Below, piece after piece: positions 142-39,453 of a stretch of DNA of 39,453 nucleotides (positions are counted from its first letter, which is position 1; each line of letters begins with the position of its first letter). The DNA lies in assembly GCA_003990765.1 (NCBI GenBank), contig RBNJ01000141.1, positions 1-39,453 on the forward strand, in the 5' to 3' direction. This DNA is from Jimgerdemannia flammicorona. Taxonomy: Eukaryota. The position numbers were made by a program, and so were the translations under genes. Below the pieces are notes generated by a model. The model saw only the letters and a program-made list of their open reading frames with translations, did no database searches and had not been told where the DNA came from.

Positions 142-192
<51 letters not shown>

Positions 193-1342
193 GACTCAAG
201 TCCTGCGGATTTTTATTGGAAGGAAACTTAGACTATATAGGCCAAAACCCTCCCCCACCACCCATCAAGCACTGCCCCCCCATTAACCTAGGCTAGCTAT
301 TATCCAACAGCTCAACTATGCCAGGCACAGCAGGGCTTATATTGGTCCATACCTCATTCTGTACACCATACTCTCCCTACCACCAGGGAAAACTCAGCCA
401 TACACCAATGACCAAAAGCACATGCCCAAGAACCCAACATATGTATAAGGCCATACCTGAGCCAAATAGAATAGCCCCTGCCACTCCAAAGAGAATGATA
501 TGCAAAGAAAAACTCTCATCAAAACACAACATAGTAGATAGAGCCTGGTTCTCCCAGTCAAGATGAGTAAAGAACTTACACATGAGGTGAGAGGAGACCC
601 CCAATACTCTACTACTCAAGCCTGTGGGCCTCAATCACATTACCATATCAGCTCTCAGTTCCAGTTGAGTGCAGCCAAGATGCCTAAAATGGGTAGCCTT
701 GGGCCCCCCAACCCCTCCTGATGACTGGGGCCTAACCCACCAATCTGCCAAAAGAAGCCAAGAGTGACACCTACCACCTAACCATACTGTACTAATCAAA
801 AGGCCCCACTGAAGCAGCACCTGCCCCAGCCCTGATGACTGCCCCCAGCCTGGCACCCTACTGATTCACCATTATCACCCTTTCTCCTATCTGTAACAGC
901 CATCTCCCCTCCCATCCCAATAACACCTGAAAAGCAGTCACCTACATCAGAACTGTGCTCACTGGGAAGCTCGCCAAAGCCAGAGAGCTCCACCACAGAC
1001 ACCAAGGACCTGCAGGTAACCTACACTGAGCACTTGATGCCCAAGGTCAGCTGACTTCCTACATAGCCCAAGATACACTGAGACAACACCTTGTTGGTGA
1101 TGGCAAAAGGAAGAAGACACTGCACCAAAATGAATATACTCCAGATACAGCCGAAGGCACCAGAAACCATGAAAAAGTGGAGAAGATACTGATCTGACAC
1201 CAATAAAGAGACAACTCATCACCATTGCCTTCCCCCCACTGCTCTGCAACAGGTACAGCAAACTAACCCAAGGTAGAGGGAGTAATAATTATAGAAAGTA
1301 GACTTGGAAGATTACCTACCAAACCATTGTGACCAGTAAGGT
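142..1342 (-). mobile_element. Non-autonomous poly(A) retroposon (SINE-like family A), copy 1, nearly full length
   Basis: poly(T) 142-188; body is the reverse complement of 30269-31419; 15-bp TSD gaaggctggatattg (127-141) / gaagactgaatattg (1343-1357), differing only by G>A. Confidence 0.93.
721..1206 (+). pseudogene. Decayed ~161-codon ORF antisense to the retroposon poly(A) strand
   Basis: ATG 721 to TAA 1204-1206 in one frame; same 486-bp span in copy 5 (30889-30404, minus); all internal stops revert by C>T/G>A transitions; many C-ending codons. Confidence 0.5.
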
Positions 1343-3254: not shown

Positions 3255-3630
3255 AAATAAAGTATATAAATCTGATGCTGGCTATAACCTCTACTCAAGT
3301 ATAGAAATAACCATTAAACCAGACAAGTAAGTAACCATTAGTATAGATGTTAGAATAAAAATCTCCAAAAGAACCTATATTTATCTTATAGAAAGAAGCA
3401 GTCTGATCAAAGAAAAAAGACTCTATATAGCTAAAGGAGTTATAGATCAAGAATTTAAAGATAAAGTTAAGGTCCTGCTATATAATACTAAGCAGAAGAT
3501 AGTTGAAATCATATGTGAAAAAAAAATCACCCAAGTCATTTTTGAGATAATTTGTAATAACTTTAAGTTGAAGAAATAAATGAACTATTATTCTTTGATA
3601 GAGGTGAAAACCCTTTTAGATTAATAAAGA
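3255..3630 (+). pseudogene. G1 dUTPase domain, between gag and protease
   Basis: Motifs SDAGYNLYS, RSSL, GVIDQEFKDKVKVLL and C-terminal DRGENPF match trimeric dUTPase motifs. Confidence 0.85.
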
Positions 3631-4261: not shown

Positions 4262-6380
4262 ATGTCTTCTCCAAATGCACTGCTGCCTCTTCTACAGCAA
4301 TTCACTACTATCCTCTATGACATCCAGCCTAGCCTCCATAAACTCATTTACTTGCCACATTTCCTCATACTTCTTGTCCACATTGCTGCTAAGTATTCAC
4401 TGCTACTATATAGAAAGCAGCTATATAATATGTCTCCTCTATCAGATACTCTTTATTTTTCAAGTTACTATTTTTAATAAGAAAACTTGCCAATTAATAC
4501 ACCACCATCAGGTGCTCACTATGTGGAGGAGTTGCTGATAAGAAATACATGATGCATTAATAGTGTTTTGCAGATACTCCTTGCCACATTTCAGTATCTA
4601 TGTTATCTTCTGGAGACCCATAAACTCCTTAAGGAGTATCAGATCATGAGTATTGCTGAATAGGTTGCAATTTTCTTTTGGGTTATTAGACACAACATGT
4701 CCAATAGACAGATGATGGAGTGCTTCCAGCACAGTAGAGATTGATCAGTACAATCTTCCACTTAGTTCTTAAGGCATTGGTGTACCTTGCTCCTGACTTT
4801 GTATGTCTGCCACATTCAAACAGCTGGCCTCCCAAAGTGAGGGAAAACTCAAAGTTTTTTCCTTACTTTAAGAACTGCATTGGTATGCTTGATGGTTTCC
4901 ATATTCCTGCTTTAGTATCTGCCAACTTAGTTATAGTATACAGAAACAGAAAGGGGTTCACTTCACAGAATATACTGGCAGTCTGTAATTTCAACATGAC
5001 ATTTTCTTATATTCTGAGCTGAGAGGGTTCTGTGCATAATGGACAAGTCCTTAAAGATGTACTCAGCAAAGATCTTTTTATTCTGGAAGGCAGGTTCTAT
5101 CTGAGAGATACTGGTTATAGACTGTTGTATCAAGTCCTTACTCTCTACTGATGCATTCAATACCACCTTCATAAACAGAGAAGTACTTACATCAAGGGAG
5201 AGCAGAGGACAGATTGTCAGAAGTTTAATTTTATTTATTTTTTTTTATTTTTTACTAGGCAACTGCCAATTTGTGACTGCAAATGAAGGAGGAGCTCTTC
5301 AACCTCAGATATGCAAGTCTGAGAAATATGGTGGAGCAGACCTTTGGAGTGCTAAAATACTGCTTTCCGATCTTGAACACATAGATCATATATTTGCTAG
5401 AAATGCAAGCAGACCTCCTACATGTATTGGCTTGCCTGTATAACTTTATCATGCAACATAATGGCCAAGATGATATATTCTTCCAGGAAGAATTTGCATG
5501 AGACTTAGAGGAGTATGAAAATAGGAAAGGATATTGGGTTGAAGAGGATGATGGTATGAGGGTCCTCAGTGCCTATAGTGGGGCCCTCTGGCTTTGACAA
5601 GCTTCCTGGTAAGTGTGGTTCTGGCATAAGTAACTGTTTTTTGGATATTGTCAAGATGGGAGGGGAGATGGCTATTACAGATAGGAGAAAGGATGATAAT
5701 GGTGAACCAGTAAGATGCCAGGCTAGAGGCAGTCATTGGGGCTGGGGTGGGTGCTGCTTCAGTGGGGCCTTTTTATTGGTACAGCATAGTTAGGTGGTAG
5801 GTATCACTCTTGGCTTCTTTTGGTGATTTGGCAAGTTAGGCCCCAGTCATCAGGGGGGGTCAGGGGGCCTGAGGCTACCTATTTCAGATGTCTTGGCTGT
5901 ACTTAACTAGAATTGAGAGCTGATATAGCAATGTGATCAAGGCCTACAGGCTTGAGTAGTGGGGTATTGGGGATCTCCTCCTGTCTTACATATAAGTCCT
6001 TTACTCACCTCAACTGGGAGAACCAGGTCCTACCCATTATATTGTACTTTGATGAGGGTTTTTCTTTACCTATCATTCTCTTTGAGGTGGCAGGGGCTAT
6101 TCTATTTGGCTCAAATGTGGCCTTGTATATATATTGGATTCTCAGGTATGTGCTTTCGGTCGTTGACATATGGCTGGGTTTCCCCTGGTAGTAGGGAGAG
6201 CATGGTGTACAGAATGAGGTGCAGGCCAACATAGGCCTTGCTGCATCTGGTATGGTTGAGCTGCTGGACAATAGCTAGCCTAGGTTAATGAGGGGGCAGT
6301 GCTTGATGGGTGGTGGAGAAGGGTTTTGGCCTATATAGTCTAAGTTCCCTTCTAATAAAAATCCATGGGACATTGAGTCC

Positions 6381-6421
<41 letters not shown>

Positions 6422-6495
6422 ATAGTGTGAGTAAATGGTAAGATGAAATTGCCCATCAAATGTGGGAAAATTATTAGCAATACTAACAACAATAG
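4262..6495 (+). pseudogene. PIF/Harbinger (HARBI1-like) DDE transposase, interrupted near the C-terminus by retroposon copy 2
   Basis: Motifs FFPYFKNCIGMLDGFHIP, YRNRKGFTSQNILAVCNF, EGSVHNGQVL, ELFNLRYASLRNMVEQTFGVLK, CLYNFI; probable intron ending at tttactag 5258. Confidence 0.9.
5561..6418 (+). mobile_element. Family A retroposon copy 2, 5'-truncated by ~350 bp
   Basis: Aligns from 30600 of copy 5; poly(A) tail; 13-bp TSD atgatggtatgag (5548-5560) / atgatagtgtgag (6419-6431). Confidence 0.93.
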
Positions 6496-6539: not shown

Positions 6540-7627
6540 CTATTGTAATTGTCCTGAAGTGTCTTTATTTATATTGTTAATCTCCTCTTTTAACCAAATA
6601 TTATGCATCTTCCCAGTAGACATTACACAGAATATTATCATATTTACTTCAGACTTCATAACACTATAAGCTTTGGTTATGTCTATACTATTTAATATAT
6701 TACTGTACTCTTTATAGAGGGCAAGGATTGCATCTTGATGGATACTGGGACTTATCAGTGACAGTACCTTTGCAATATCAGTCAGCTGGTCAATGGTAGA
6801 GGTAATTGCCATACTAGAGTTAGTTTGCTCATGTTTTTTGGAAGTGGTTTTGTGGGAGGGAGTAGTGTTGTGGGAGGAAGTGGTGGTAGAGAAAGTGGTA
6901 ATAGAGGAAGATTTGTTGGTGTTGGAGATATTTTGAGAGGTATCTTGAAGCTCATCTTCATCTTTGGAGAGTATCTCATTTCAAATTTGATGCTTGTTGG
7001 TATTGGAAGATGTTTGAGAGAAGATTGATAATTGGTGCTCATTTTTATCTTCAGAGAGCATCTTGGTCTGAGTGTAATACTGCATGGCCTGGCCTTATAT
7101 AGTGGTATAATGGCCAGTTTTCCCTATTGTCCCAAATAGCTCATTAAAGTTATTATAGTGAGAAAAGGCCCTATTTCAGAACTTTTTTGCCTGGGGGTAT
7201 ACTTGTAAACATAGAACAAATTAGAAAAGATAATATTCAGCTTGCAGAAAGCCTAAATAATGAGTATTTGCACCTTTAAGTAATCATTCCACACTTTTGA
7301 AAGAGCCTCCACTGTTTGTACCTCCTCATTCCAACCAAACCCACTCCTATTCTTTAGGTAGTTGAATGTGCCATAGTCTAACTTAAATGACTGGTGAAAC
7401 TTCGACTTGATCTGACTGATATTGATCAGCTGGTCAAAGTGTTCTGAGCATTGTTTAGCTATTGAGACCCATGTCTCTGGCTTGAAACTATTTTCAGTTC
7501 TTTTTCTACATCAAACTACATTAAGCAGCTGAGAGATCAGGTAGTTTTCCATTGTCAAGTCCCATTGGAGATACAGTGCCTTCTTCTTTCCTTCAGAGTT
7601 TTCTTTGGCAGAGGTAGTGGGGTTCAT
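6540..7627 (-). pseudogene. PIF/Harbinger second gene: Myb/SANT-like DNA-binding protein
   Basis: Minus-strand translation LQWDLTMENYLISQLL..ENSFKPETW..LKNRSGFGWNEE..VWNDYLK, GT-AG intron ~7273-7202, then PQAKKF; convergent with the transposase. Confidence 0.85.
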
Positions 7628-8299
7628 GGAGGTAATGGATTCATAGAGACAAAGACGAATATAACAGGAAGTAGTAGAGGTAGTGAAAATAACAGTCAAA
7701 ATATAGATCCGAACCTATATTTCAAAATAAGGGGTTATATATGATTTTGTGTAATATTGTGTTCTAATGGTGATATTGTACCAAACACATTATAATTTTG
7801 CTGTGATATTTAAAAATAATGTTATTTCGAAATGCAGGCATTATTTTCTAAACTAACACAACTGAACAGGCCCTAAACTCTTTACAAATATTGAGATTTT
7901 ACAGATATTAGTTTTGATAATCATCAAAGATTTAACAGATATCAAGGATTAATACTTATAAAAAGTAACTTATATATATATAAATATCCTCAGTATCTAG
8001 AGTAAATAAACCTCAGATTGAAATAGTTCAAAATAAAGAGAAAGCAAAAAAAACTAGTAAGTCTGCAGACAGATATACTTTGAACTCACCCACCCCTATA
8101 TTCCAAGGACTCTGCAGAGTCAAAGAAGATCAAGTTTTTAAAATATAGAAATCTGACATACTTTTATAGTTATATATCTGCTACATTACAACTTGGTATA
8201 TATTGGCTGGTAATTCAAGATAAATTTCTCACTTTTAAGCTAAATAATAAATAACTGCTACTATCTGAATAACTATATAAATCAAATCAAGACATCTAG

Positions 8300-11200
8300 A
8301 CAAGATAGATATAAGACTACTAGTATTCTACAGATATACTTCAGATGAATCAATCATTATCTTTATTGATGATTTCAAGTAGTATACTACTATAAGGATT
8401 CTGATAGTAAGACAACAAATAGTCCTCATGCTCTTTAGTCTCTGAGAACCAGTAAGAGTAGCATTCACAGCTGTAACTTATATATAAAATAATAATAATA
8501 CTATACTAGCAGCACAGAAGGCCTGGCTCCAAACCACCTACTATATAGAAAAGATCAAGAAAGTACTAAAGGATTAGCTCAATATAATATATCAAGAAAT
8601 GAGTGAAGATCTAAATACATTCTACACCAGAATCTAATATTAGATAATACTTACAGATTATGCTACTGCTATTTAAGATTAAGTAGCAGAAATAACTTTC
8701 ATGAAAGGAGTCTACCCAGAGATAGCCCTAGCTATCTGCTCATCACCAGTAGTCCTAGATCTAATACAGAAGGTCACCTATGCCCAGTGATACTGAATAG
8801 CCAGACATCTACAAGACTATATAATGGAAAGAGTTACTAGAGTTAGAATCAAAGCACTCAAGGCAACTAGTATAATTTCTACCATAGTAATCAATTGAAA
8901 TACACCTCAGCTAAGAGCTATAGAGCAATAGTAAAATAGCAATCCTATGGAGGAATTTGCTAAGAGGTTTGCTGAAATAACTACTTATCTTGAAGATATA
9001 GTAAAGAAAATTCAAAGAAGAGACTACTGCCTAGTTCAGAAGTTTGCTGCTATCTCAGATAAGAAGAGAGATACCTGCTATACTTATAGAGAAGAAGGCC
9101 ACTACTCATATAAATATATAAGTGAGACCAAGTACAAAACTCAGCCAAGCAATGCTATAAGAAACAAAGAATAGGCCAATACTATTACCTTTGAAAAAAT
9201 TGGAAAATTAGATGAAAAAGAATGAGAGGCCTACTCTGATAGATTACTAAGAAAGATGTTCAAAAGAAACCCTACAAGAGACCACCAGGAAGACCTAAGA
9301 AGAACTCTGTGGAAAAATAGATGGAAACTACTACAGAAAGCCAAGGTGAAGAAATTGATCAAGATACAGAGCTGGAACAGGCTGTTCAAGATATCATTTG
9401 AGGAACTACCACAGCCAGTAAAGGAGAAAAAGAGAAGAAGCTTCACAAGACCAAAACTTTTAAGTATAATATCTTCAAGGACCTCAGTCAACAAAAGGTC
9501 AATACAACCTTTGGCCAGTTGGCAAAAATATCTATATTTAGACAGTAAATGAGATATGAACTTGCTGAGACAACCAAGAAATAAGGATAGAAGATAACTG
9601 AGGCCAACAATGTTCAAAAAGACTCTAGAAAAGAGAGTGAAGATAATTGCAAGATATCTGTCTATACTATCTATCAAATCAAAGATAGAATCTTTGAGGC
9701 TCTCATTGATACTGGAGCAGAAGAATGTCTCTTTAGTAAGAAAGCAGCAGACTGTCTAGGTTGAGAGATTGAGGAAGCAATCAAGTTGATATTCATCATA
9801 GCTGATAGTACAAAAGCTACACTTCTGAGAAAGATCCAAGATATTTCTATCAAGTTTGGAGGAGCAACCATCTCAGTAGATATGATTATAACTAATACTA
9901 CTAACTATGACATTCTTATCAACAACCAGTGACTTCATAAAGCCAGAGCAATAATTGACCTCAATGCCTCAAAGATATAGATCATCTACTAAGATCAGAA
10001 GATATAAATTCTCATCAATATCAACAAAAGAGTACTGCCTAAAATAGAGAAAGAAAAAAGCAAACAAAAAGAAGTCTATATAGTGACTACTCAGAAAAAG
10101 AAGAAGAAAGTCAAATGGATTAGTAAAGAAAAATGGTGTAAAAGAATCATTGAAGGATATATACTACAAGGAGTCTGCTCTCACAGAATCAAGATATACT
10201 ATATGAAATATATTGATAATTGCTATCAGTATATCAGTAGAATTAAGAAGATCTACTATGAAAGAATATAGAGAGCTCTTGAGAAATAAGCAATGCTAAA
10301 AAAGGAACAGAAAGAGGATGACAAACCACTAGCTCTCCTAGAGAATAGTAATTATGAAGAAGAAATCTAGGTCAAGATTTGAAGGATCCACTTTGATACA
10401 GTTCTATCAGAATATAAGTCAGAGAATACAACTGGAATGAATATTACCACAGTAGAGGAAACTATACTGGAGCCTCAGACAACTACCCTGCTTGCAACTG
10501 GTCTAGAAATGACTATCTCAAAGAACCATATTGGGATCCTCAAGATAAGAAGCAATATGGCCAAGAGTGAGATTATTATTGAAGGAGGTGTTATCAATTC
10601 AGACTATATTGGAGAAATACTACTTATTGCTTAGAACTACAACTCTATGATTCTGTTTCCAATTAAGAAAAAAGACTAATTGATACAGATATTGAACTTC
10701 TCAGTTCTTCAGCTAAAGATTATAGAAGTGAAGAAGTTGGAGGAAACAGAAAGAGAAAAGAAAGGATTTGGATCCATAAGAAGAGGAGTATTTATTAGTA
10801 CTAAGATCACTGAACTGGATTATAAGAAGGAGGAAACCACAAATAAGCATAGTTATACCATTAGAAATTAATTCTCACTCAAGAAGGAATACATGAAGAT
10901 ACTTTATAAATTTGAGGATGTTCTAGCCGCAGACTTCAAGGATATCAAAGAAAAGACTCCATACTACTATTATGATATAAACATAGGAGATACTGAACCA
11001 ATTTATCAAAATACAAGGTCAATTCTACTAGCCTATTGTGGATGGCTCAGAGAATAAATCAAGTAGATGAAAGAAGCTAGTATCATCAAAGAAGCCAGTA
11101 GCCCTTAGACTTCACCAGTTGCATCAGTCTCAAAAAAAGAAAGCAAACTAGGAGAATTTGCCCCAAGACTCTACACCAATTACAAGAAGCTAAATCTAGC

Positions 11201-13980: not shown

Positions 13981-14474
13981 TGTGACAGTTGATCTGAATT
14001 AGAAACATGAATTAAAAGAATAGACATTTGATTATAATATCTGAATCTGATTCCTAAATATAGTATAGTCTTACAAATAGTAGTCATTTCACAAACTTTA
14101 AAGTTTTCACAAATGTTAAACTCTTTACAAATATTGAGATTTTACAGATGTTAAAGTTTTGACAATTATTAAAGATTTAATAGATATCAAGAATTAATAC
14201 TTGTGAAAAGTAACTTATAGAAAATATAGTCATAACTTAGTTACTTTATTGCTAGCAAACTTGTATAAATATCTCTAATATCTAGACTAAATAAATCTCA
14301 GATCAAAATAGTTCAAAGCAAAGAGAAAGTAAAAGAACTAGTAAGTCTGTGGGCAGATATACTTCAAACTCACCTACTTCTATATCTTAAGGACTTTGTA
14401 AAGTCAAAGAAGATCAAGTTTTCAAGATATAGAAATCCAATATACTTCTATAGTTATATGTCTGCTATGTTATA
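13981..14474 (+). repeat. G2 3' LTR (494 bp)
   Basis: tgtgacagttgatc...ctatgttata; direct repeat of the 5' LTR. Confidence 0.93.
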
Positions 14475-16642: not shown

Positions 16643-17106
16643 TATAATAATTTTATAGATATATTTAGACTTAGTACATTTTTGTATCTTTTAATTAGTC
16701 TTTTCTTATCATTTCTTGAACATTCTACTATATTCTGCCATCTTCTACTTGTTTAGAAATCTTCTCTTGGTACTTAGACACTACTAGAATACTCTTGTCT
16801 TTTCTTGATATTAAGTATCTTGTCTTAGCTAGTCATAGAACCTTTCAGAATATTGTAGAATTATATTAGTCAGCTTTACCAAGAATCTATTTCTTGGTAT
16901 TTCTCTTTCTTTCCAAGATCCTTCTGAATCTTTCTGTCAGATCATATATAAATATCCTTATTATCTACCTGAATAAAGCTCAGAATATTTTCTCCCAGAA
17001 ATCCTTCAAGAATACTTGAACTTTTAAATATCTCTTTGAGCTACTTTAGGCTAACTAAAACCTCCAGATTTAGCTACTTTCTCTTAAAGAAACTAGAACC
17101 ATTATA
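16643..17106 (+). repeat. G3 5' LTR (464 bp)
   Basis: Direct repeat of 22290-22751; TG..CA ends mutated to TA..TA. Confidence 0.93.
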
Positions 17107-17196: not shown

Positions 17197-20100
17197 ATGA
17201 GCTATGAAGAGTCAGTCCACTAGTTAGACCTCTCTACTATAAAAGAAGCAGAAGAACTATAAGCCAGTATAGAGGACATGATTACCTCTATGGCCTACCA
17301 AATCTAAGTACTTCAAGTATAACTAGAACAGCAGAAAACAAAAACTGCAAATATATCACATTCTGTGTAGCACTAGTTAGTTTCAAGTCACTCAAGCCAA
17401 ATATCTTCAATAGTCACCAAGGAGGACTATCTACAGATATGTAGATCTTCTAATTGAATTAATACTTCAAGTTTATAAGAATAGAAGAAGACATACAAGT
17501 CTAATTTGCTGCCATACTTCTCTGAGGAAATGTAGCCATTTGGTAGTGCAATTATATTATAACTATATCTATATACTCATATATATGAATTAAAGATTTA
17601 GAAGCTTTCAAGAGAGCCCTTTATAGGCAGTTCAAGTCTGCTAATACTACCAAGCTAGCCAGAGATAAGCTAGAAAACATCAAGCAACTCAAGTCTATAT
17701 AAAGCTATAATATATAATTTCTGTCAATTATACTTAAACTACTAACAATAGCTAAGAATGAAAAGATAAAATGCTATGTCTGAGATCTGAAGGGAAATAT
17801 ATAAGTAAAAGTAGAGCTAGAAGAGCCACAAAGCCTTGATGAAGCTATAAGGATTGCCAATAGGTTCAATATCATCACCTTTGGCAACTACTTTAAACCA
17901 GAATACTACAAGAAGAACTACTTTAAGAACTACCATAGAAACCAACCAAGGGTAGTTGGTCCAGCATCAATGGACTTAGATACTATATGTAAATAAAAAG
18001 AACACTAAGCTCACCTCTGAAGAAAAGGACTATCTGAAGAAATCTGAAGTCTGTTTCTTTTATTACCAAATAGGATATATTACAACCAAATGTCCTAAGA
18101 AGACTAGCAAACCTTCCAAACTAGTCACTGTATTGTCTAAAGACACACCTGTCAACCCTACTACTAGTCAATCTAAGCTCAAGATCAAGAAGCTTCACTC
18201 AAAGGCTCAGGCCCCTCAATATCAAACAGAAAGAACTATTGGTCTTGATCTATACTCTGTCAAATAAGTCACCATTCTAGCCAAGGGCCAAACTCTAGTG
18301 CCTACTAGAATTACAGTCTAATATTCTGAAGGATATTATATCAGAATTATATCACAATCAGGACTCAGTGTCAAACATTATTTAAATATAGATGCTAGTG
18401 TTATTGACCCAGACTTTCAAGGATAAGTTCAAGTTCTACTTATCAATCAAAAGGATCAAGACTACATAGTCAAGGAAGGAGACCAAGTTACACAAATAAT
18501 CCTAAAAAAAAGCCAGTTAACTCAAAATTACAGAAGTTCAAGAACTCTTTAAAACCAAGTAAGATCAAAAAGATTTTAATAGTACTGATCAAGCAGCAAG
18601 TCTTAATGAAAATTGAGCTCAAGCTATGCTCATTTTCAAAGACCTAGTTAAAGAAAAAGAAGTTCAAGTACTTATAGACAGCAGAGCTGCAAAAAACTTC
18701 ATCAATTAAAATCTCATTGAAAGCCTCAAGATCCTTACCAAGTCTGTACCCAAGAATAACAGTATAGTTACTACAGATAGTACACTATACCCTATCAAGT
18801 CAATTGCTATCAAATTACCCATCAAGATCCAGAAATATTGAGAATGAGTAGACTTTGAGGTTGTACCACTAGGAGATCATGATCTGATCCTAGGAAAACT
18901 CTGGCTTACAAAATACAATCCAGATATCAATTGATATAAGAATGAAGTCACCTTATTTCAAGATAGAGCCAATATCACTATCAAGATAGACAAGATCATG
19001 AGCAAGACCCAGATTGCAATACTGTCAGTCATATAGTATAGGAGAGTACTTAAGAAGGTAATGTATGCCTTTATTGTAATAGTTCATCCCAAAAAATAAG
19101 ACAAGAAACTATTAGTCAATGAAAGTATCAAGTTACTGCTAGAAGAATTCAAGAATATCTTTCCAGATAAGCTACCTGGTCTACCACCTATATGAGAAGT
19201 TGATTATGAAATCAAACTGACCCCAGGAGCTATACTACCCAAGAAATATATGTACTATATGTCACCACTCAAAATTGAAGCAGTTAAAAAAGAACTAAAA
19301 GAACTACTTATATGAGAAGTCATTTAGCCAAGCAAATCTCCTTATAGCTCATCAGTCCTATTTGTCAAGAAGAAGGATGGTACTCTATAAATATGTATAG
19401 ACTATCATATACTCAATAAGCTCACTATCAAGAACCACTATCTGTTACTTTTAATTGATCAAATCTTTGATACTCTCAAGAATACCAAGTACTTTACTAA
19501 ATTGGACCTCATGTCAGAATACCACTAGATCTAAATTGAGCCAGAAGATTTCTAAGACTGCATTTATGACTCTCTTTGGACTCTACAAATTCCTGGTCTT
19601 AGTATTTGGTCTCACTAATATATCTGCCACATTCCAGACCTTAATGAACAAGATATTCAAGAACTAACTATTTATTTTTCTATTGATATATCTTGACAAC
19701 ATCCTGATCTTTAGCACAACTAAAGAAGAATACCTCAAACATATTCAAACAGTCCTAGAGATCCTGCAAAAATACAAGCTTTATACTAAGCTTAAGAAGT
19801 ATGAATTCTTCAAGAAATATGTTGAATATCTTGGCCATATTATCTCTATATAAGGAATCCAAGTAGACCCAAACAAGATAGAGGTAATTTAAGAATAGTC
19901 TATTCTATCAAATCTCACAGAACTTCAATCTCTCCTTGGCCTAGCTGGCTACTACTATTGCTTTGTCAGAAACTCTCTGGCATTATTGAGCCACTGACTA
20001 ACCTCATGAGGAAGGTCCCACACTCAGACCATGATATACCCTACACCTGAGACCTCTTCTATCAATAAGCCTTTCAAGAACTCAAGAAATGCCTAACCTA

Positions 20101-21990
20101 TACTCCAGTTCTACATAGTACAGATCAAGACCTAAAATTCATAGTTACCACTAATGTATTGAATTTTGCCATTAGAGTAGTTCTATTACAAGACAATAGC
20201 AAAGGATATCATTCTATTGCTTTTGAGTTTCACAAGTTGGCCCTAGCTGAACAGAAGCTAGCCACTCATAAAAAGACTACTAGTAATAATATATAGACTA
20301 GACTACTGATAATACTATCTAGAAGATATTGAGTTTGATATTATTACTGACCATTAATCTCTCAAGTATATCAACATCCAGCCTACTCTGTTATGCTTAT
20401 AAGCTAAGTGGAGTCTCAAACTTCAAACCTTCAACCCAACAATTATCTATAAGCCTGACAAGATACTTGTAGTATCAGATACCTTATCAAGATATCTGGA
20501 CCTCACCATAATCATACAAGTCACCTTGGCATCAGAATTTCTAGACCAAATCAGGCAAGCTTATAAAGAAGTTACAGTCACCACTAGAGTTTTCTTGAAT
20601 GAGCTCAAGGATACATATACTGTTAAGATCAATCTGATCTATCATTAAGACTAAGTCTATCTACTCAAAAACATAAACCTACACTATAAGATTTTGTAAG
20701 AACACTATAACTTCCCTCTTGCTAGTTACCTGGGAATCAAGAAGACTGTTAAAAATATCTAACATCACTATTATTGATCAAGCATGGTCAAGAAAATTAA
20801 GAACTATGTTACCAGCTATAATCTATGCCAGTACAATAAGTCTATCAACCAAGTATCAGCTGGCTTGCTACAACTACTGCCAATTTCCACCAAGAAATTC
20901 AAGAAAGTTACTATGGACTTTGTAACTTAACTACCATAAACTCAATCTGGTACTAATGCTATTATTGTATTTATTGACTGCCTGACCAAAACTATGGTTA
21001 TCAAACTAACTACTACCAATGCTACTATACCCAAGATTATAAGAATCTTCTTCAAGTCTATCTTCTATCACTATGACCTACTACAAGTAATTATCAGTAA
21101 TTATAATCTCAAGTTTACCAGTCACTTCTGACAAACTCTCTTTAAGACCCTAGAAATCCAATTGGCTATATCTACTGCCTTCTACCTACAAACTAATAGA
21201 CAAACCAAGTATATGAATAGAACTCTAGAACAGATGCTTAAAAACTATATTTCTTATAAGTAAGATAATTAGGACCACTATCTAACTTATATAGAGTTTG
21301 CATACAATAATTTTATTCAATTATCTACTAGTCTTTCTCCTTTCTGGTTACTCCATGATTAAGATCCCAAGACCTCTGCAAGTCTAGTCCCTTTCAAGAA
21401 AGCAGTCAAATATAAGTCTCTACTACTAAGAGTGTTATAGACAAAATGGACAAATTACTCAAGATTTCTACTATGAATCTTCAGAAGGCTCAATAGTATT
21501 AAGCTAAGTATGCTGATAAGAAATACCATGATATCACTTATACTATTAGAGATTAAGTCCTACTATCTACTGAGAACCTCAAGATATAATCTCAAGTTAA
21601 CCATCCTTTGAAAAAGTTCCAACCCAAGTATATTAGACCTTTCAAGATTACTAAACAAGTCTTTGCATCCTCCTACTGCCTCAAGCTATTTAAAATTATG
21701 AGAGTACACCCAGTCTTTCATATATCATACCTTAAGATCTAAAACTAGTTACTACTCTATCCTGATCAAATTCTTAAGCCATCTGTCCCAGTGATTATTG
21801 AAGATCATATTAAGTATGAAGCTAAGAAAATTCTTAACAAATGAATCTACTACTGCTATCCTGAATACCTAGTCAAGTAGATGGGCTACTCTAAATATAA
21901 TACTATCTGGGAACTGCTGGTCAATCTCAAGAACTCTCAAGATCTAGTTCAAGACTTTGAGATAAAATATATTATCCAATCTCTATAGTG
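17197..21990 (+). pseudogene. G3 gag-pol
   Basis: FAAILL*GNVAIW (gag), CFFYYQIGYITTKCP (~18052), VLIDSRAA (~18665), IYLDNILIFS (~19690), RNase H, integrase MDFVT/QTNRQTK, VHPVFHISYL, chromodomain YLVK*MGY..IWELLVNL (~21813-21960). Confidence 0.92.
18178..18590 (+). pseudogene. G3 dUTPase domain, between gag and protease
   Basis: LKIKKLHSKAQAP, IGLDLYS, LVPTRI, SQSGLSVK, ASVIDPDFQG*VQVLLIN, EGDQVTQII. Confidence 0.92.
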
Positions 21991-22289: not shown

Positions 22290-22751
22290 TGTAATAATTT
22301 CATAGGCATATTTAGTCTTAGTATATTTTTACATCTTTTAGTTAGTCTTTTCTTATTATTTTTTTGAATATTCTACTATATTCTGCTGCCTTCTACTTGC
22401 TTAGAAACCTTCTCTTAGTATCGACACTATTAGAATATTCTTGTCTTTTTTTGGTACCAAGTATCTTATCTTAGCTAGTTATAGAACCTTTTAGAACATT
22501 ATAGAATTATATTAGTTAACTTTACTGAGAACCTATTTCTTGGCATTTCTCTTTCTTTCCAAGATCCTTCTGAATCTTTCTATCAGATTATTATAAATAT
22601 TCTTATTCTCTATTTAAATAAAGCTCAGAATATTTTCTTTCAGAAATTCTTTGAGAACACTTGAACCTTTAAGTATCTCTTTAAGCCACTTTAGACCAAC
22701 TAGAACCTCTAGATTTAGCCACTTTCTCTTAAAGAAACTAGAACCATTACA
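22290..22751 (+). repeat. G3 3' LTR (462 bp)
   Basis: tgtaataatttc...ccattaca. Confidence 0.93.
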
Positions 22752-22811: not shown

Positions 22812-23350
22812 TAGTGCTCCAAATGAGTCAATTTAATCTAGATTGAATTCCATCTGGATCAACTCAGATGGGATTTGAATCTCATCTGGATGGATTCAAA
22901 TCAACTATTGTTTTAATTTCCAAATTAGACAATTGAATGTTTACATTAATAACTTAATAAATAATTAACTAAATTTGATAATCTTAGGTCATTTGAAAGC
23001 CCTTAATGAGACCTATCTAATGACATCAAGAACATTGAAATCAGATCATATATTGCTAAGTTATGAAGGAAAATATCTAAATTGCTGATTTTGGAAATTA
23101 TTAGATTTTCTGATTTTGAAAATTTTATCAAATAGAACATTTTCCTTAATATTTTAGCAATATATAATCTGATTTTAATATTCTTGGTATAATTAGAAAG
23201 GCCTTATTAAGGACTTTCAAATGATATTAAGATTATTAAATTTGGATGATTATTCATTGAGTTATTGATATAAACATTCAATTGTCTAATTTAGAAATCA
23301 AAACAATGGTTGATTCAAATTCTATCTGAATTGACTCATTAGAAGTACTA
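22812..23350. mobile_element. hAT-type foldback MITE (539 bp)
   Basis: TIR tagtgctccaaatgagtcaatt / aattgactcattagaagtacta; 8-bp TSD attatata / attacata; ~200-bp internal inverted arms (~22880-23078 vs ~23132-23320). Confidence 0.88.
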
Positions 23351-25829: not shown

Positions 25830-25845
25830 AGAGATACAAAATTTA

Positions 25846-27016
25846 CAGCTACTTTCTCCACTACCATACTAGTTATAAAATATAGATAAGCAACTGTCTG
25901 AGTCTCTTTTCTCCTAACTTTACCCTCTTTACCCCAGTATAGTTTGCTATACCTATAAAAATATGGTAAAAGAAAGACAATGGTGAAAAGTTACTTCTTT
26001 ATTAGTATCAGATCAGTATCTTCTCTACTTTTTCATAGTTTCTAATATCTTTAGCTATATCTGAGATATATCTATTATTTTCTTTCTTTTGTAGATATTA
26101 TCTCAGTATATTATAGACTATATAGAAAGTTGACTGACCTTGGGTATTAAGTATTAAGATAGATTACTTATAAGTTCTTAGCACTTATAGTGAGGCCCTC
26201 TGAGCTTTGGTGAGCTTTCTAGTAAGTATAGTTCTGATATAGGTGACTGTTTTTTAGATAGAATTAGATTGAGAGAGAAGATAGCCATTATAGATAAGAG
26301 AAAGGGCAATTATAATAAATCAGTAGGGTACTAGACTGAGGGCAGTTATCAGTACTATATCAGTAGAGTCTTCTGATTGATACAGAGTAGTTAGATAGTA
26401 GATATTACTCTTAACTACTTTTAGTATTAAGCTCTAGTTATTAAAAATAGTTAGAGAGCTCAAGACTATCTGGATCAGATATTTTAACTATATTTAACTA
26501 GAACTAAAAGCTAATATAATAATATGATTAAAGCTCACAGGCTTGAGTAGTAGAGTATTGGAGATCTTATCCTATCTTATATGTAAGTTCTCTACTTATT
26601 TCATTAGAGAGAACTAGGTTCTACTCACTATTCTGTACTTTAAGAGAGATTTTTCTTTACCTATTACTCAACTTGAGATGGTGGAGATTATGCAAATTGG
26701 CTCAAATATAGTCTTATATCTATATTGAAGTTTCAGCTATATATCTTTAGTTATTAGTATATGGTTACTTTTTCTCTAATAGTAGAGAGAGCATAGTATA
26801 CAGAATGAGATATAGACTAATATAAGCTCTACTGTATCTGGTATGATTGAGCTGCTGAATAATAGCTAGTTTAGGTTTAATAAGAGTATAGTGCTCAAGG
26901 ATTAGTAAGAGAGAGTTTTGGTCTATATAGCCTAAGTTTTCTTTTAAAAAAAATCTGCAGAACTTTGTATTTATTAAAAATAAAAAAAAAATAAAAAAAT
27001 AAAAATAAAAAAAAAA
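25846..27016 (+). mobile_element. Family A retroposon copy 3, heavily mutated
   Basis: Starts cagctactttctccactacc as copy 5 does; degenerate A tail; TSD agagatacaaaattta / agagatgcaaaattca (27017-27032). Confidence 0.9.
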
Positions 27017-27885
27017 AGAGATGCAAAATTCACAAATAACTTCTAATAAGTACTTTTTAAAGAACTAAAAGTATAACTCAAGATATCTACTATCTATTAC
27101 CTATAGATAGATAGTTATATAGAATAAATTAATAACTCTAAAGTAAATCTTTAGTATCTTTTATAGCTATAAGCAGAATAATTAGAACAAAAATCTAACC
27201 CTAACTAAATTCATATATAATAACAGTATAAATACAAGTATAAAAATGACCCTATTCTATCTGAACTATAGATAATACTCTTGAACCCCCACAACTATTA
27301 TATAAGCAATAATACTAGTAATATAAAAAGTTATCAATACTATATAAAGTACTATCTAGCAAGTACACAATACTTTTATAGAAGTATAAAGAATATAAGT
27401 AGTATATACTAATAAAAATAGAAGAGAAGTTACTTATAAAAAGATGAATAAGTATTACTCAGTATATGGTACCTAACTCTGAATATATAATATGAGACTA
27501 AAAAGAAACTTAGACTCTATTACATTAGACTATTCAAGATTTTAAAGAAGTATAGTCCTATTATATATAAGTTGAATCTCCAGTAACTCTCAAAAAAATC
27601 CACCCAGTATTTCATATATCTCAACTCTAGCTATATATTGAAAATATCTTTAAAGAAAGAATAGTACTACTCTTAGATCTAATTATTATTTACTAAGAAC
27701 TAGAATATGAAGTTGATTATATTTGAATTATAAGGACTGATAATTTGAATGAGCTACCAAGTCCATCTAGTACTATCTCATAAAATGGAAAAGCTATCTT
27801 AAATATAATACTATCTGAGAAAAAGAAGATAATCTTTTACTAAATATAGAAGAAGCAGTAGCCTAATATAGATATTTTATATAAT
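27017..27885 (+). pseudogene. G1 integrase C-terminal half and chromodomain
   Basis: RDAKFTNNF, YNNSINTS, IHPVFHISQL, EYEVDYI, IKWKSY..TI*EKEDNL. Confidence 0.85.
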
Positions 27886-27937
27886 GAAAATTTTAATGAA
27901 ATTTCCAAAAGACAGTTATACTCTTGATAAAGAGAAG

Positions 27938-28192
27938 TATAAATATCTTAAGATATTTATAAAATAATCTATTATAGTATAAATAATTAGTAACAATATC
28001 AAGAACAGACTAAGAATAAGATTACTATGACTATCTTTATAGTTATTGAATACCAATAGACCTTTACAGAACTACTCTCTATTAATATATAAATTTCTAG
28101 AAACTCTGATCCAAATAAAGCTCAATAATATCTTGAAAGAATCTAATATTTCCAAATCTTCTATTATTAATAAGAATTGAAGGAATATTATA
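27938..28192 (+). repeat. Putative G1 3' LTR
   Basis: Follows a purine tract after the chromodomain; contains tatataaat and aataaagctc, as the G3 LTR does; no partner LTR in window, so ends are approximate. Confidence 0.4.
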
Positions 28193-28233
28193 ATATTAGA
28201 CAACTTATCTACTAATAAGCAAATCTCTTTAGT

Positions 28234-29400
28234 ACTCTTTTCTCTACTACTATACAAGTTATAAAATTTTAGTAGGTAACCTTTTCTTTACTTTTATCTT
28301 CTCTATCTTAGGTTGGTTTGCTATATCTATAAGGGTATAATAAAAGAGAGATAATGGTGATGAGTTGTTCCTTTATTTGTATCAGATTAGTGCTTTCTTT
28401 ACTTTTTCATAGTTTCTAATATCTCTGACTATATCTAAAGTATATCTGTTTTGGTACAGTATCTTACTTTTACTATTATCAATAAGATATTATTTCAATA
28501 TATCATAGGTTATATAGGAAGTTAGCCAATCTTAAACATTAAGTACTAATATAGATTACCTATAGGTCCTCAGTATCTATAGTAGAGCTCTCTAAGCTTT
28601 AACAAGCTTCTTAGTAAGTATTGTTCTAATATATATAAGTAACTATTTCTTAGATAGTATTAGAATGAGAGGGAAGATAGCTATCATAGATAAGTAGAAG
28701 AGTAATTATAGTAGACTAGTTAGGTATCAGACTGGTGATAGTTATCAGAGCTAGGGCAGATATTATATTGGTAAGACCTTCTAATTAATGTAGGGTAGTT
28801 AGATAGTAGATATCACTCTTGATTACTTTTGATAATATTTGAGATTAGACCTTGGTCATTAGAGATAATTAGAGAGCCTAAGGCTATTTAGATTAGATAT
28901 CTTAACTATACTCAACTAAAACTGAGAGTTGATATAGTAATATAATTGAGGCCTATAGCCTTGAGTAATAGAGTATTGAGGGTCTTCTTCTGTCTCATAT
29001 ATAAGTCCTCTACTCACCTCATTAGAGAGAACTAGATTCTACTCACTATTCTATATAATAATAAAAAAGTTTCTTTATCTATTACTCTATTTAGAGTAGT
29101 GGAAACTATTCTATTTAGCTCAAGTATAGCCTTATATATATGTTGGAGTTTCAGATATATATCTTCAGTTATTAGTATATAGTTACCTTTCCCCCTAGTA
29201 GTGGAGAGAGTATGGTATATAATGAGATACAAACTAATATAAGCTCTACCACATCTGATATAGTTGAGCTATTGAATAATAGTTAGCCTAGATTTAATAA
29301 GAGTATAGTACTCAAGGGGTAGTAAGAGAGAGGTTTGGCCTATATGGTCTAAGTTTCCTTTTAATAAAAATCTATAAGACTTTGAGTTTATTAAAAAAAA
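28234..29400 (+). mobile_element. Family A retroposon copy 4, heavily mutated
   Basis: Colinear with copy 5 from its 5' end; short A tail; no clean TSD. Confidence 0.88.
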
Positions 29401-30251
29401 TAACTTTTTTTTATTTTTTCCACTAATACAAGACTTCTTTATTAACTAATTTATAATAAATATATAGTTCTCATACTATACTGGTAACTTCAATCCAACC
29501 TCTCTACCCTATCTTATCTTAATATTTTCTCTCTCTCTCATCTCAACTTTCCTAAAGATAATAAGCAACTTTTAGTAAAACCAAGCAACTGCCCTATTTA
29601 TTCATTAACAACTATATCTATATTATTATAAAAAGGTTATATGTTCTTTTCTATACTTAGTCCCAAGTCCTCAACTATTTCTATAAAATATCTTCTAAGA
29701 ATATTATTAATCCAACTAATGAATACTGGAGTGATATTACTTTTTAAGTAGTCTAGTATATAGCTCTTCAGTTTGAAGAGTATCTAGGATTTAGTACTAA
29801 CCTTGATGAGTAAGTTCTGACAAAGAAGAAAAAAATATAATAGTTTATTATATATTAATAAAGCTATTGAATATTTCAATAGAATTTCTAATAAATAGTA
29901 ATAAAAATATACTAATAAGCTACTGAAATTTCCAACAGAAATTCTAATAGAATTTCCAATAAGTAGTTATGAATATTATATAGTATAACTATATATAGAT
30001 ATATCTAATATACTATATTTAATTATAGCTTTAAATCTATATAAATATTCTCTATACTAAGTATATAATAATCTTAGCTCTATTTTTTCTAAATATAAGA
30101 ATAAAGTAGTATTCTTACCAAGAACTCTCAGATCCAACTTATTAATAATTTTAAGTCTAATTAACTTGAGATATAAATATAATATCTTTATTAGTATAAG
30201 AATCTGAAAATAATACTTAGACTATACTACTGCAATAGATAATTAAAACTT

Positions 30252-31416
30252 CAGCTCCTTTCTCCACTACCTTACTGGTCACAAGATTTGGTAGGTGACC
30301 TTCTAAGTCTCCTTTCCCCTATTATTACCCCCTCTACCTCAGGTTGGTTTGCTGTGCCTACAGGGGTATGGTGGGAGGAGGGCAATGGTGTTGAGTTGCC
30401 CCTTTATCAGTGTCGGATCAGTGCTTCCTCTACTTTTTCACGGATTCTGGTGCCTTCAGCTGCATCTGGAGTGTACCTGTTTTGGTGCGGCACCTTCTTT
30501 CTTTTGCCGTCGCTAACAAGGTATTGTCTTGGTGTATCTCAGGCTATGTAGGGAGTCAGCCGATCTTGGGCATCAAGTGCTTAGTGTAGATTACCTGCAG
30601 GTCCTCGGTGCTTATGGTGGGGCCCTCTGGCTTTGGCGAGCTTCCCGGCGAGCATGGTTCTGGTGTAGGTGACTGCTTTTTGGGTGTTGTTGAGATGGGA
30701 GGGGAGATGGCCATTACAGATAGGTGGAAGGGCAATTATAGTGAACCAGTAGGGTGCTAGGCTGGGGGCAGTCATTGGGGCTGGGGCAGGTACTGCTTCG
30801 GTGGGGCCTTTTGATTGGTGTGGTGCAGTTAGGTGGTAGGTGTCACTATTGACTTCTTTTGGCGGTCAGCAGGGTTGGGCCCCAGTCATCAGAGGGGGTC
30901 AGGAGGCCCGAGGCTACCCATTTCAGACATCTTGGCTGCACTTAACTGAAACTAGAAGCTGATACAGCAACATGATTGAGGCCCACAGGCTTGAGTAGTG
31001 GGGTATTGGGGGTTTCCTCCCGCCTCATGTATAAGTCCTTTACTCACCTCAACTGGGAGAACCAGGCCCTACCCACCATGTTGTGCTTTGTTAAGGGTTT
31101 TTTATTTGCCTGTCATTCTCTTTAGGGTGGCAGGGGCTATTCTATTTGGCTCGGGCATGGCCTTGTACATACATTGGGTTCTCAGACATGCGCTTTCGGT
31201 CATTGGCATATGGTTGGATTTTCTCTTGTAGAGAGAGAGCATGGTATACAGAATGAGGTGTGGACTTATTAGCTCTGCTGCGCCTGACATAGTCGAGCTG
31301 CTGGACAATAGTTAGCCTAGGTTAATGGGGGGGCAGTGCTTGGTGGGTGGTGGGAGAGGGTTTTGGCCTATATAGTCTAGGTTCTCTTCTAATAAAAATC
31401 CACGGGACATGAGTCC

Positions 31417-31480
<64 letters not shown>
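30252..31480 (+). mobile_element. Family A retroposon copy 5, full length and least mutated
   Basis: Perfect 16-bp TSD tagataattaaaactt (30236-30251 / 31481-31496); AATAAA at 31391; ~60-nt poly(A); retains several CpG. Confidence 0.95.
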
Positions 31481-31482
<2 letters not shown>

Positions 31483-31496
31483 GATAATTAAAACTT

Positions 31497-32475: not shown

Positions 32476-33850
32476 ATGACGCCACAGCCTTTTTGTAATG
32501 ACGTCACACCCAACAACCCCTGCTCAGACTGTCTGACCAAAGTTGCCATTCTTGACACCGCTGCCCCTGCCCCTTCTCCAACGTCTACCCTGAACATCCG
32601 TTTGACACCAATGACACCAGTGACACCATCCGTGGCGAGTTTGGCCCGTCCTGGAAGGCTGCTTACCATCCTCAACGCGGTGGGGTAAGTTGTTTGATAT
32701 ATATATGCTTGCCTTGTTCGCCATGAAAGAATACTTAGTCTCACACCACCTCATTGTGCCGCGTTTCCCTCAGCAGACCTTCACCAAGACCCACCGACCA
32801 TCACCACGTCGTTATCATTGGGACCTTTGCACCTGGATGATCTGAAGACTAACGAGCCCGTCAGGAGATTGTGATGCAAGTTGCGGAAGTTGTCAATCCT
32901 AAATTGAAGGGTATGTGTAATTGTGGTGCCCTGCTTCCATTATTACTGGCACGCTTGACTGGAGAGTTTCTAACACTGATATTGATCCCACAGACCCTCC
33001 ATACGTTCGATGCCTTTTTTAATAATGGTTGATACAAACACTTCTAGTGGTACATCTAGCTTGCCAGGAACATCAACTTTGATCAGGAATCCTATATGTA
33101 AGCCGAATATTGTTGTATGTCCCCAGATCCGATTACGCGAACATGCAACACATACTCATCCAAACCTCGCTTTCTCCCCCCATCCTCGCAGTGTCACCAG
33201 TCCAAACTCTGAGTTCACCCTTACCCCGTACCTTGACATCCGCCCCGACCGGCATGCAAAGCCTCGCGCCACGCTCCCCCACAATTTTGCAGCGCTCAAG
33301 TGACGACACCTTCTCAGCCTTTGAGAATAAGGGCGATGGTGCAATGACGCCTCCTCAAGGTGTGCCAGGTGACATTCGTGTGCGTGAATGACTAGTACAT
33401 TGGGAAGAGCGCCAGAGCATAACAGCAGATACGTTAGAAGAAGATTATGGTGGAGAAGATTACTAATGTAGATATTCTATCTGCCAGGGGCGGAGAAAAT
33501 GGTATGTGTATTAGATGATTTTTCAATGAGAATATTTACGCAGATAATGTCTGTTCGGGGGCTACTTCTTACCGTCGCTACGATTACTAATTCGCCAACG
33601 GCCTTAAATCCATGTCATTTTCTATAACAGCGAGAAGATCGACTTTTTCTTTGATACTGACGAATACTGACGAGAGTGGACCAAGTGGCGGGTGGGATCA
33701 TAGGGAAGATGCCAAGTGGCTCGGGGTGGGATCATGGAGAGGATACTGGTTTGGCCCGAGTGGCTTGAGGCGCTGAGGCTGGGTGGGATCATGGGAAGAT
33801 GCTAGTTTGGCCCGAGTGGTTGAAGCAGAGGAGGGAGGATATTGACGTAT
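32476..33850 (+). pseudogene. Intron-containing gene-like locus with in-frame stops; product unknown
   Basis: Canonical introns gtaagt 32685..cag 32773/32776 and gtatgt 32911..ctaac..cag 32993; spliced frame has stops (FAPG*SED*RARQEIVMQVAEVVNPKLKDPPY). Confidence 0.4.
33690..33820 (+). repeat. Short imperfect direct repeats
   Basis: gggtgggatcat at 33690, 33724 and 33781; gtttggcccgagtgg twice. Confidence 0.8.
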
Positions 33851-34663
33851 AGGGGTATGGTGGAAAACAGGATACCTTGGTCTTGTATCAGAGTGCATAC
33901 CATAATAAATATAAATTGCATTATGCATTGAAATATTAATTACCCACGAACAATGAGACAGTGATTTCTAAATTTTTACCCAAACTTGACTTTCGTCACG
34001 TACGCGATTTTGCATGCATGATCCATTCTCAGTGATACAAACTAATTTATTCCTACACCTCGCTTTTATTTTTTGATCGGGATCAGATTAATAAACAATC
34101 GCAGTTAGTGTATAAGCAGGAAAGCATGATTCAAAATACGAATTCACATAGGAGCGATTACATTATCCACCATTTGATGCTTGGGGGAAGGGCACGAGAC
34201 GATTCGGTCTTCAAATCATACTCAGCCGACCATCAATATCCGAAAGGTAGAAAAAATAGATGGTGGAAGGTTCTCATGTCCCCCAGCCCGAACACCTGGC
34301 CAGGATGATGGTTCACACTGATATGACATTATGACATTGGAAAACCGCGTGGATACCTGTGACATGGGGACACAATGAAATCGCGCGACCCAAATGCAGG
34401 AAAGTGCATGCTCGGACTCATCCAAATAATCCAAATAAGGAGTCGCGCTCCACAAATTGGAAAAGGCGTTCCACATCCGCAGCCTACGATGATTGAAGGA
34501 TCGCGCGCTCCCGAACAGGCCTAGCTTTGTATCTCCGTCAGTGGAGGTCCATTACCGAAAATAGACCGCGCGACCTCCAAAGTGGGTGTGCACGCCCCGG
34601 ATGTTCTGCCGTTTATTTTCTTACAGGGTCCAAGTCAATCAGTAAATTATGAGTACCGTGCAT

Positions 34664-35469: not shown

Positions 35470-35527
35470 GCCCCTCACATTGACGACAGCTTAGAGCATT
35501 TTTTTTTTTTTTTTTTTTATCGTGGGA

Positions 35528-37563: not shown

Positions 37564-37603
<40 letters not shown>

Positions 37604-39350: not shown

Positions 39351-39453
39351 AGCCAGAGAATACTGAATGATCGGTACTCCAATTGCATGGCGTTTGATGG
39401 TAAGTGGTGCATCCGTTTTTTTTTTTTTTTTTTTTTTTTTTGTTTATTTTTTT

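Follow-up and report, generated by a model that had tools for sequence, protein, structure and literature searches.

The window that we analyzed, a stretch of 39,453 nt, contains five copies of a repeat family whose element is ∼1.17 kb long, as revealed by blastn of the first copy against the whole window and by alignment. The blastn matches extend over positions 139 to 1342 (c1), 5561 to 6419 (c2), 25974 to 27017 (c3), 28353 to 29403 (c4), and 30269 to 31469 (c5). Copy c1 is inverted relative to the other four, and its sense strand is the minus strand. On the basis of the blastn self-match, the alignment, and reading of the sequence, the body of c1 was placed at 189 to 1350 on the minus strand, where it is full length or nearly so. 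Its 5′ end is CAGTCTTCACCTTACTGG, with a small deletion relative to c3 to c5, and its A tail appears on the plus strand as a run of 47 T's at 142 to 188. The body of c2 (5561 to 6383, plus strand) is 5′ truncated at the equivalent of c1 position 1010 and is followed by an A tail of 36 nt (6384 to 6419). Two plus-strand copies are full length and heavily mutated: c3 (25846 to 26975), which ends in an interrupted A-rich tail of 42 nt (26976 to 27017), and c4 (28230 to 29392), with an A tail of 11 nt (29393 to 29403). The least decayed full-length copy is c5, with a body of 1168 nt at 30252 to 31419 on the plus strand and an A tail of ∼60 nt (31420 to 31479).

Target-site duplications were recognizable in four of the five copies. 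The duplication that flanks c5 is perfect (30235 to 30251 and 31480 to 31496, 17/17), that of c3 is alike at 14 of 16 positions (25830 to 25845 and 27017 to 27032), and that of c2 is alike at 11 of 13 (5548 to 5560 and 6419 to 6431), with both mismatches being transitions. For c1 there are two overlapping candidate pairs, alike at 12/13 or 16/17 positions, and c4 is the exception, with no clear pair. In all five copies, the 3′ A tail adjoins the flanking DNA directly. At the other end, c3, c4, and c5 begin with identical bases and c1 with nearly identical ones, c2 being the sole truncated copy. An AATAAA motif is located in c5 at 31391 to 31396, 24 nt 5′ of the A tail, and the motif is also found in c1, c2, and c4.

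Copies c3, c4, and c5 lie in the same orientation within 5.6 kb. A segmental duplication of this cluster was ruled out by the intervening spacers, which match nothing else in the window; the unique spacers indicate three separate insertions. Together with two copies recovered from unrelated public records (P0003 and P0004), seven copies of the family are known. Assembled contigs from two sequencing runs with small shares (0.09 and 0.07), 80 to 90% alike, also align to c3 to c5, the strand of a contig being uninformative. One sequencing-run contig of 3259 nt covers only the 3′ part of the element (equivalent to 30914 to 31388), without the antisense frame discussed below. Elsewhere, the window also contains a GTATGT intron and dUTPase-bearing LTR remnants, which, along with the spectrum of mutations described below, give the genome a fungal appearance; for an ORF at 34750 to 35466, no protein relatives were found.

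Class of the element and decay of its copies

The evidence supports classifying the family as a poly(A)-tailed, non-autonomous, putatively LINE-dependent, SINE-like retroposon. The A tails, the AATAAA motif, the target-site duplications, and the one 5′-truncated copy all argue for this class, as does the absence of Pfam families in the six frames of c5 (stops read as X), among which neither a reverse transcriptase nor an endonuclease of its own was found. The same features bear out an earlier note on this DNA, which had described a SINE-like poly(A) element. We use the term “SINE-like” rather than classical SINE because of the 1.17-kb length, the AATAAA motif, and the lack of a Pol III-type head. 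In the window, ARAGORN detected no tRNA genes, and no Rfam family reached its gathering score. Nor did the window reveal a LINE partner; among its 91 ORFs of at least 70 amino acids, the 51 that were scanned gave only LTR-type domains. The combination of AATAAA and internal T runs points to Pol II transcription of the element.

Could the copies instead be processed retrocopies, all derived from a single Pol II gene of the host whose transcript, either an mRNA or a long non-coding RNA, was repeatedly captured by a LINE? Such retrocopies would be expected to show an AATAAA motif followed by an A tail, a defined 5′ end, and target-site duplications and to have no head of the Pol III type. However, five copies in 39 kb plus two in unrelated public records amount to the kind of density that transposable families show, and the copies fall into at least two lineages set apart by shared indels, which points to several source copies. 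Moreover, a sense-strand protein family was not found. We therefore regard retrocopies of a host gene as distinctly unlikely.

The RNA of the element corresponds to the A-tailed strand. We propose that this RNA would enter the genome by target-primed reverse transcription, using machinery that was probably supplied by a LINE at another genomic location. Insertion by this route would leave A tails and target-site duplications of 13 to 17 nt and, at times, a truncated 5′ end. Subsequent to insertion, the copies have changed almost exclusively by C>T/G>A transitions, chiefly at CpG and CpA, a process that would make them AT-rich while keeping their A tails pure.

The copies are 68 to 83% identical to one another in pairwise comparisons, with transition/transversion ratios of 4.9 to 8.6. 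Scored against a transition-reverted reference, the frequency of C>T change ranged among copies from 45 to 84% at CpG, from 15 to 73% at CpA, from 10 to 47% at CpC, and from 2 to 16% at CpT. The order of decay by context is CpG > CpA > CpC >> CpT, and C>T/G>A changes occur throughout all copies. Over the whole window, the observed/expected ratio of CpG is 0.38. The A and T bases of the copies are nearly unchanged, which explains how the A tails have stayed pure even though the copies carrying them have diverged by 17 to 30%. Hypermutation specific to TCG was considered and rejected based on the frequencies at TCG and ACG (0.46 versus 0.73). As judged from this spectrum, the decay may have been a RIP-like process or deamination of methyl-cytosine.

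Stop codons and indels in the antisense frame

The poly(T) run at 142 to 188 represents the A tail of a copy on the minus strand, and the plus-strand frame at 721 to 1206 is therefore antisense to the retroposed RNA. For this frame, the earlier note had proposed that the element mobilizes a small basic protein gene in antisense. The dimensions that it gave are correct: the frame spans 486 nt from the ATG at 721 to the TAA at 1206 in c1 and likewise 486 nt in c5 (30889 to 30404, minus strand). The first two ATGs (Met1 and Met39) are indeed 114 nt apart in c1, c2, and c5, which have no indels in the frame, and each of the four copies that extend to codon 162 has the terminal TAA there (4/4). A TAA codon contains no C or G to be altered and cannot be removed by a C>T/G>A process, so that its conservation is uninformative.

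Is the frame open in any copy? Our data revealed that it is closed in every one. Counting the terminal codon, there are 7 in-frame stops among the 162 codons of c1, 5 in c5 (internal stops at codons 8, 103, and 117 plus two at the end), 16 in c3, and 17 in c4; c2 has 3 in the 96 codons that it covers. Many of these stops (codons 25, 48, 70, 95, and 159) face CGA, CAA, or TGG in another copy, and codon 5 is TAA in four of the five copies. At codon 103 (c1 positions 1027 to 1029, plus strand), c1 has TGA and c5 has TAA. The first base of this codon is T in all four covering copies, c3 and c4 having T plus a 1-nt gap, and no sense codon is found there in any of them. The claim that all internal stops revert by C>T/G>A thus fails at codon 103.

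We constructed a maximally transition-reverted consensus in which c2 was included only up to c1 position 1010, since the flank beyond this point is non-homologous. A consensus containing stops not attributable to transitions had been named in the earlier note as an outcome that would speak against a gene, and the consensus retains TGA at codon 103. The longest antisense frame of the reverted consensus comprises 110 codons (697 to 1026), and the sense strand offers frames of 125 and 113 codons. An open antisense consensus frame of 169 codons was also considered and was rejected, as the C that it needs at c1 position 1027 came from the unrelated flank of c2.

The frame is preserved no better than the remainder of the element. 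Between c1 and c5, identity is 83.5% inside the frame and 84.3% in the stretch 189 to 720, with no indel events inside the frame and four outside. Between c3 and c4, five indel events fall inside the frame and two in 189 to 720. The remark in the earlier note about divergence and indels immediately beyond the ORF is thus a weak one, given that identity inside is about the same as outside and that indels between c3 and c4 are commoner inside. Two of the changes within the frame, a 1-nt insertion near c1 position 980 and a 1-nt deletion near 1029, are common to c3 and c4. The insertion is also found in P0003 and hence in three of the seven known copies; P0003 probably carries the deletion near 1029 as well, as its last residues fit a loss of 1 nt at that point. 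Frame 3, which is entered after the insertion, has a TAA at 1017 to 1019 in all copies, and the lineage with the insertion consequently runs into a stop.

Protein searches, chance expectation, and codon-like signals

We searched for relatives of the putative protein by using the antisense frame of c5 with X at the stops (P0001) as the query. A word-index search of 5.8 billion clusters, from which 18 candidates were scored, gave a single match, P0003, and a full read of 1.84 billion representatives again returned P0003 alone. This protein of 105 residues comes from a contig of 770 nt and is a fragment of another retroposon copy. Its residues 1 to 88 follow the proposed frame, after which the translation continues in frame 3 (975 to 1004) and then in frame 2 (to 1027) of c1. 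All three frames are therefore used within 105 residues, with two frame changes, the second shift being its own. At several positions where the window copies have stops, P0003 has Trp, Arg, or other sense residues. No Pfam family and no PDB sequence matched the antisense frame, and AlphaFold modeled the antisense protein with a mean pLDDT of 52.6 and a pTM of 0.18, which is a weak test with a single sequence. Two metagenome scans gave no matches, one with a transition-tolerant 48-nt pattern and the other with c5 peptide patterns, which were a poor choice because c5 is a mutated copy.

As a control, we searched with the sense ORF of c1, which comprises 109 codons (962 to 1288, minus strand). 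This query found exactly one protein, P0004, a “hypothetical protein” of 93 residues that is 78 to 80% identical over 90 to 93 residues in one frame and that lies opposite the DNA of the proposed antisense ORF. The matches to P0003 and P0004 indicate that, where copies are less decayed, gene callers will select ORFs from either strand.

The sense strand performed comparably in the copies themselves. Over the same 486 nt, one sense frame has 3 stops in c1 versus 7 in the antisense frame, and 4 versus 5 in c5. The longest uninterrupted ORF is longer on the sense than on the antisense strand in c1 (109 versus 89 codons), c2 (92 versus 89), and c5 (98 versus 94), and longer on the antisense strand in c3 (72 versus 54 codons) and c4 (78 versus 48).

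How long a frame is expected by chance? In dinucleotide shuffles of the consensus, the median longest ORF was 149 codons, and 946 of 1500 shuffles reached 140 codons. A window of 162 codons with at most two stops occurred in 998 of 1000 shuffles, and one with no stops at all occurred in 374 of 1000. Such openness is what chance alone would give, since the reverted antisense strand is T-poor (∼12% T). The caveat attached to the original proposal, namely, that GC-rich DNA with its transitions reverted can give long ORFs by chance, is the explanation that we adopt. The ancestral antisense strand would have been C-rich and T-poor and would have held few stop codons, and reverting every transition would remove nearly all of those that were left. 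The antisense ORF is most likely a by-product of stop-poor composition combined with the mental reversal of mutations and not a gene.

A gene could still be envisaged in copies other than those sampled here. Active master copies might carry a real antisense gene for a small protein, of 162 codons or shorter (e.g., from Met39 to codon 102), expressed from an internal antisense promoter in the manner of L1 ORF0. Consistent with this idea, most stops coincide with codons for which another copy has CGA, CAA, or TGG, the sense residues of P0003 occupy several of those positions, c1, c2, and c5 are free of indels within the frame, and the codon-like signals described below, weak as they are, point in the same direction. 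However, the stop at codon 103, with its T in every covering copy, outlasts even maximal reversion, and codon 5 is closed in most copies. The lineage of c3, c4, and P0003 is frameshifted into the TAA at 1017 to 1019, and P0003, the only relative, is itself another copy that changes frame twice. In addition, the frame is no more open than expected by chance, it lacks a Pfam family and a confident fold, and the sense-frame control performs equally. The protein would be rich in Pro, Ala, Thr, and His, as expected of translated C/A-rich DNA. Taken together, the closed codon 103, the lineage with the +1 and −1 shifts, the chance-level openness, the frameshifts in P0003, and the equal sense control do not support a small basic protein gene mobilized in antisense, and we give its presence in master copies hardly any credence.

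Codon-like signals were nonetheless detected in the frame. In the proposed frame, dN/dS (NG86) was 0.29 for c1-c2, 0.43 for c1-c5, and 0.37 for c2-c5, compared to 0.51 to 0.85 in the other two phases. Neutral simulations that used the copies' own context-specific rates gave median dN/dS values of 0.52 to 0.55, and values at or below the observed ones were obtained in 7/400 (c1-c2), 43/400 (c1-c5), and 41/400 (c2-c5) simulations. Transitions common to at least two copies were distributed over codon positions 1, 2, and 3 as 26, 27, and 40, compared to 40, 38, and 30 for private transitions; the share of position 3 among the common transitions was reached in 36 of 3000 simulations. Shared transversions numbered 0, 2, and 5 at the three positions. 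The base G is richest at position 1 (54, 33, and 28 by codon position), the chi-square test of base by position gave P = 0.024, and the period-3 power was reached by 15 of 500 shuffles. With the stop-poorest windows of shuffles as the null, 27 of 1000 reached the observed chi-square value and 27 of 1000 reached the period-3 power. The control stretch 189 to 720 displayed none of the codon-like signals, and no tandem repeats that could be a source of periodicity were found in 189 to 1350.

These signals were read as weak because they come from related, sequential tests on five copies, with non-independent pairs and mostly parallel changes. The last point follows from the number of shared transition columns, 93 observed versus a median of 106 under independent decay, which indicates that most shared transitions are parallel changes rather than inheritance open to selection. 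A codon-like periodicity (P of about 0.01 to 0.05) is left as a weak, unexplained remainder, and the codon-like signals weakly keep alive two minority readings.

According to the first of these, the region 721 to 1206 would be a fossil piece of coding sequence, of host origin or taken from some other element, that was built into the founder in reversed orientation and has no present coding function. The restriction of the period-3 composition and of the G preference at position 1 to 721 to 1206, with their absence from 189 to 720, fits this reading, as does the scarcity of stops in this frame of the reverted consensus. The periodicity is weak, however, at ∼27/1000 under the selection-matched null, and emerged after several tests; neither the 1.84 billion representatives nor Pfam yielded a donor protein, and the third-position excess of shared changes, if real, would be left unexplained. 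A fossil coding piece is in our judgment unlikely.

The second reading is that a shorter ORF is real in master copies: as the family diversified, purifying selection would have acted on a short antisense coding sequence, perhaps extending from Met39 through codon 102, or on the entire frame in an unsampled lineage. If true, the third-position excess, the low dN/dS, and the periodicity of G at position 1 would be the trace of that coding sequence, and a non-autonomous retroposon would have been spreading an antisense small-protein gene. To our knowledge, the one element so far reported to have such an architecture is primate L1 (ORF0), which is autonomous. We consider this selected short coding sequence very improbable.

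The reading that we prefer, and hold to be probable overall, is that of an ordinary non-coding poly(A) retroposon whose antisense frame is a compositional by-product. These results carry a caution for similar repeats. When C>T-hypermutated repeats are restored by reverting transitions on a C-rich, T-poor strand, long frames will appear in almost any consensus, and conserved TAA or ATG codons are no evidence of coding in such repeats.

Comparison with known systems

Classical SINEs derive from tRNA, 7SL, or 5S RNA, are transcribed by Pol III, and are roughly shorter than 600 nt. The present element resembles them in being non-autonomous and dispersed and in having target-site duplications, an A-rich tail, and a putative dependence on LINE machinery. 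It differs from them in its length (the body of c5 measures 1168 nt), in its AATAAA motif and internal T runs, and in that Rfam and ARAGORN found no relation to tRNA, 7SL, or 5S RNA in the window. The window contributes a further family of SINE-like, Pol II-type poly(A) retroposons, from a repeat-rich, fungal-looking genome that appears to have been shaped by a RIP-like or deamination process.

The antisense orientation of the frame recalls primate LINE-1, whose 5′ UTR contains the antisense ORF0 (PMC7746726, PMC4908685, PMC8554170) and is described as having an antisense promoter (PMC7746726, PMC4908685). As with ORF0, the frame lies opposite the retroelement's own RNA, and an antisense promoter inside the element would be needed for its expression. 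In contrast to the present element, L1 is autonomous; the frame described here is interrupted by stops in all copies as well as in the consensus.

Among described systems, the one that comes closest in architecture is Eg-R1 of the powdery mildew Blumeria graminis. Eg-R1 is a SINE-like, Pol II-type, non-autonomous non-LTR retroposon with AAUAAA and >3000 copies, and its 5′ sense strand gives rise to ROPIP1, an experimentally supported peptide of 74 or 44 residues (PMC6022598). According to that account, the two elements are alike in being non-autonomous and non-LTR, in being unlike a classical SINE and lacking an A/B-box head, in having AAUAAA and many copies, and in having a small ORF proposed as a source of protein. 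They differ in that ROPIP1 is encoded in sense and has experimental support, whereas the frame examined here is antisense and unsupported. The genomic insertions of Eg-R1 are described there as having no poly(A) stretches (PMC6022598), whereas the present copies mostly have A tails of 36 to 60 nt (11 nt in c4). Blumeria, moreover, is stated in the same source to be without RIP (PMC6022598), whereas the copies in this window are hypermutated. Should the codon-like periodicity be confirmed in a large set of copies, it would be relevant to the way in which retroelements give rise to new small proteins, a role for which ROPIP1 of Eg-R1 is the proposed precedent.

Mutation spectrum and placement of the retroposon copies

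Across all five decayed copies of the poly(A) retroposon family (c1 to c5), C>T/G>A hypermutation followed the order CpG > CpA > CpC >> CpT. The most frequently mutated trinucleotide was ACG (0.73), and TCG (0.46) was the lowest among the CpG contexts. A and T were almost unmutated in these copies, and body divergence reached 32%. Because A and T were nearly untouched, the A tails remained pure despite the divergence of the bodies.

Three of the insertions (c3, c4, and c5) lie in identical orientation within 5.6 kb (25846-31496). The spacers that separate them are unique within the window, and c3 and c5 each have their own target-site duplication; that of c4 is indistinct. The cluster is due to a local hot spot for insertion or simply to chance. 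Adjoining c1, a short array of imperfect repeats was observed at 1590-1680, made up of aattcaaatttggt and its inverted form. Other long A or T runs are located at 1-29, 35500-35519, 37564-37603, and 39416-39453, the first and last of which form the two ends of the window. These runs may be tails left by further retroposons whose sequences are unrelated to the c1 to c5 family.

LTR retrotransposon remnants

Pfam searches of three plus-strand ORFs (3331-3576, 10383-10631, and 20069-20293) revealed dUTPase matches (E values of 2.8e-11 and 1.4e-11) and a match to RT_RNaseH_2 (E value of 2.2e-12). The ORFs represent what is left of LTR retrotransposons, including at least one that carries a dUTPase. 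The dUTPase and RNase H ORFs are flanked by two pairs of direct repeats, one spaced by ∼6.3 kb (7910-8188 and 14155-14472) and the other by ∼5.6 kb (16645-17104 and 22292-22749), with 81 to 89% identity within pairs. Both are probably LTR pairs, belonging to two Gypsy-type elements. Directly past the second LTR-like repeat, two nested inverted-repeat pairs with 85 to 86% complementarity (outer, 22894-22986 and 23228-23320; inner, 22989-23074 and 23139-23224) form a long palindrome-like structure (22894-23320).

Candidate genes

A 914-nt contig from sequencing run X1 was placed with zero mismatches on 33192-33500 and 33630-33871, skipping 129 nt. The skipped stretch (33502-33630, plus strand) begins with GTATGT and ends with CAG, and the contig resembles the spliced transcript of a gene lacking any recognizable domain. 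A weak TPR_10 match on the minus strand (36809-37129; E value of 0.0033, under the Pfam cutoff) and a plus-strand ORF (38199-38606) with a P-loop-like GIGGIWKS, assigned by eye with no tool, may represent a decayed NLR-type gene. The minus-strand ORF at 7256-7510 matched the Pfam family Myb_DNA-bind_3 (E value of 3.6e-10), a Myb/SANT-like domain that occurs in partners of Harbinger-type transposons.
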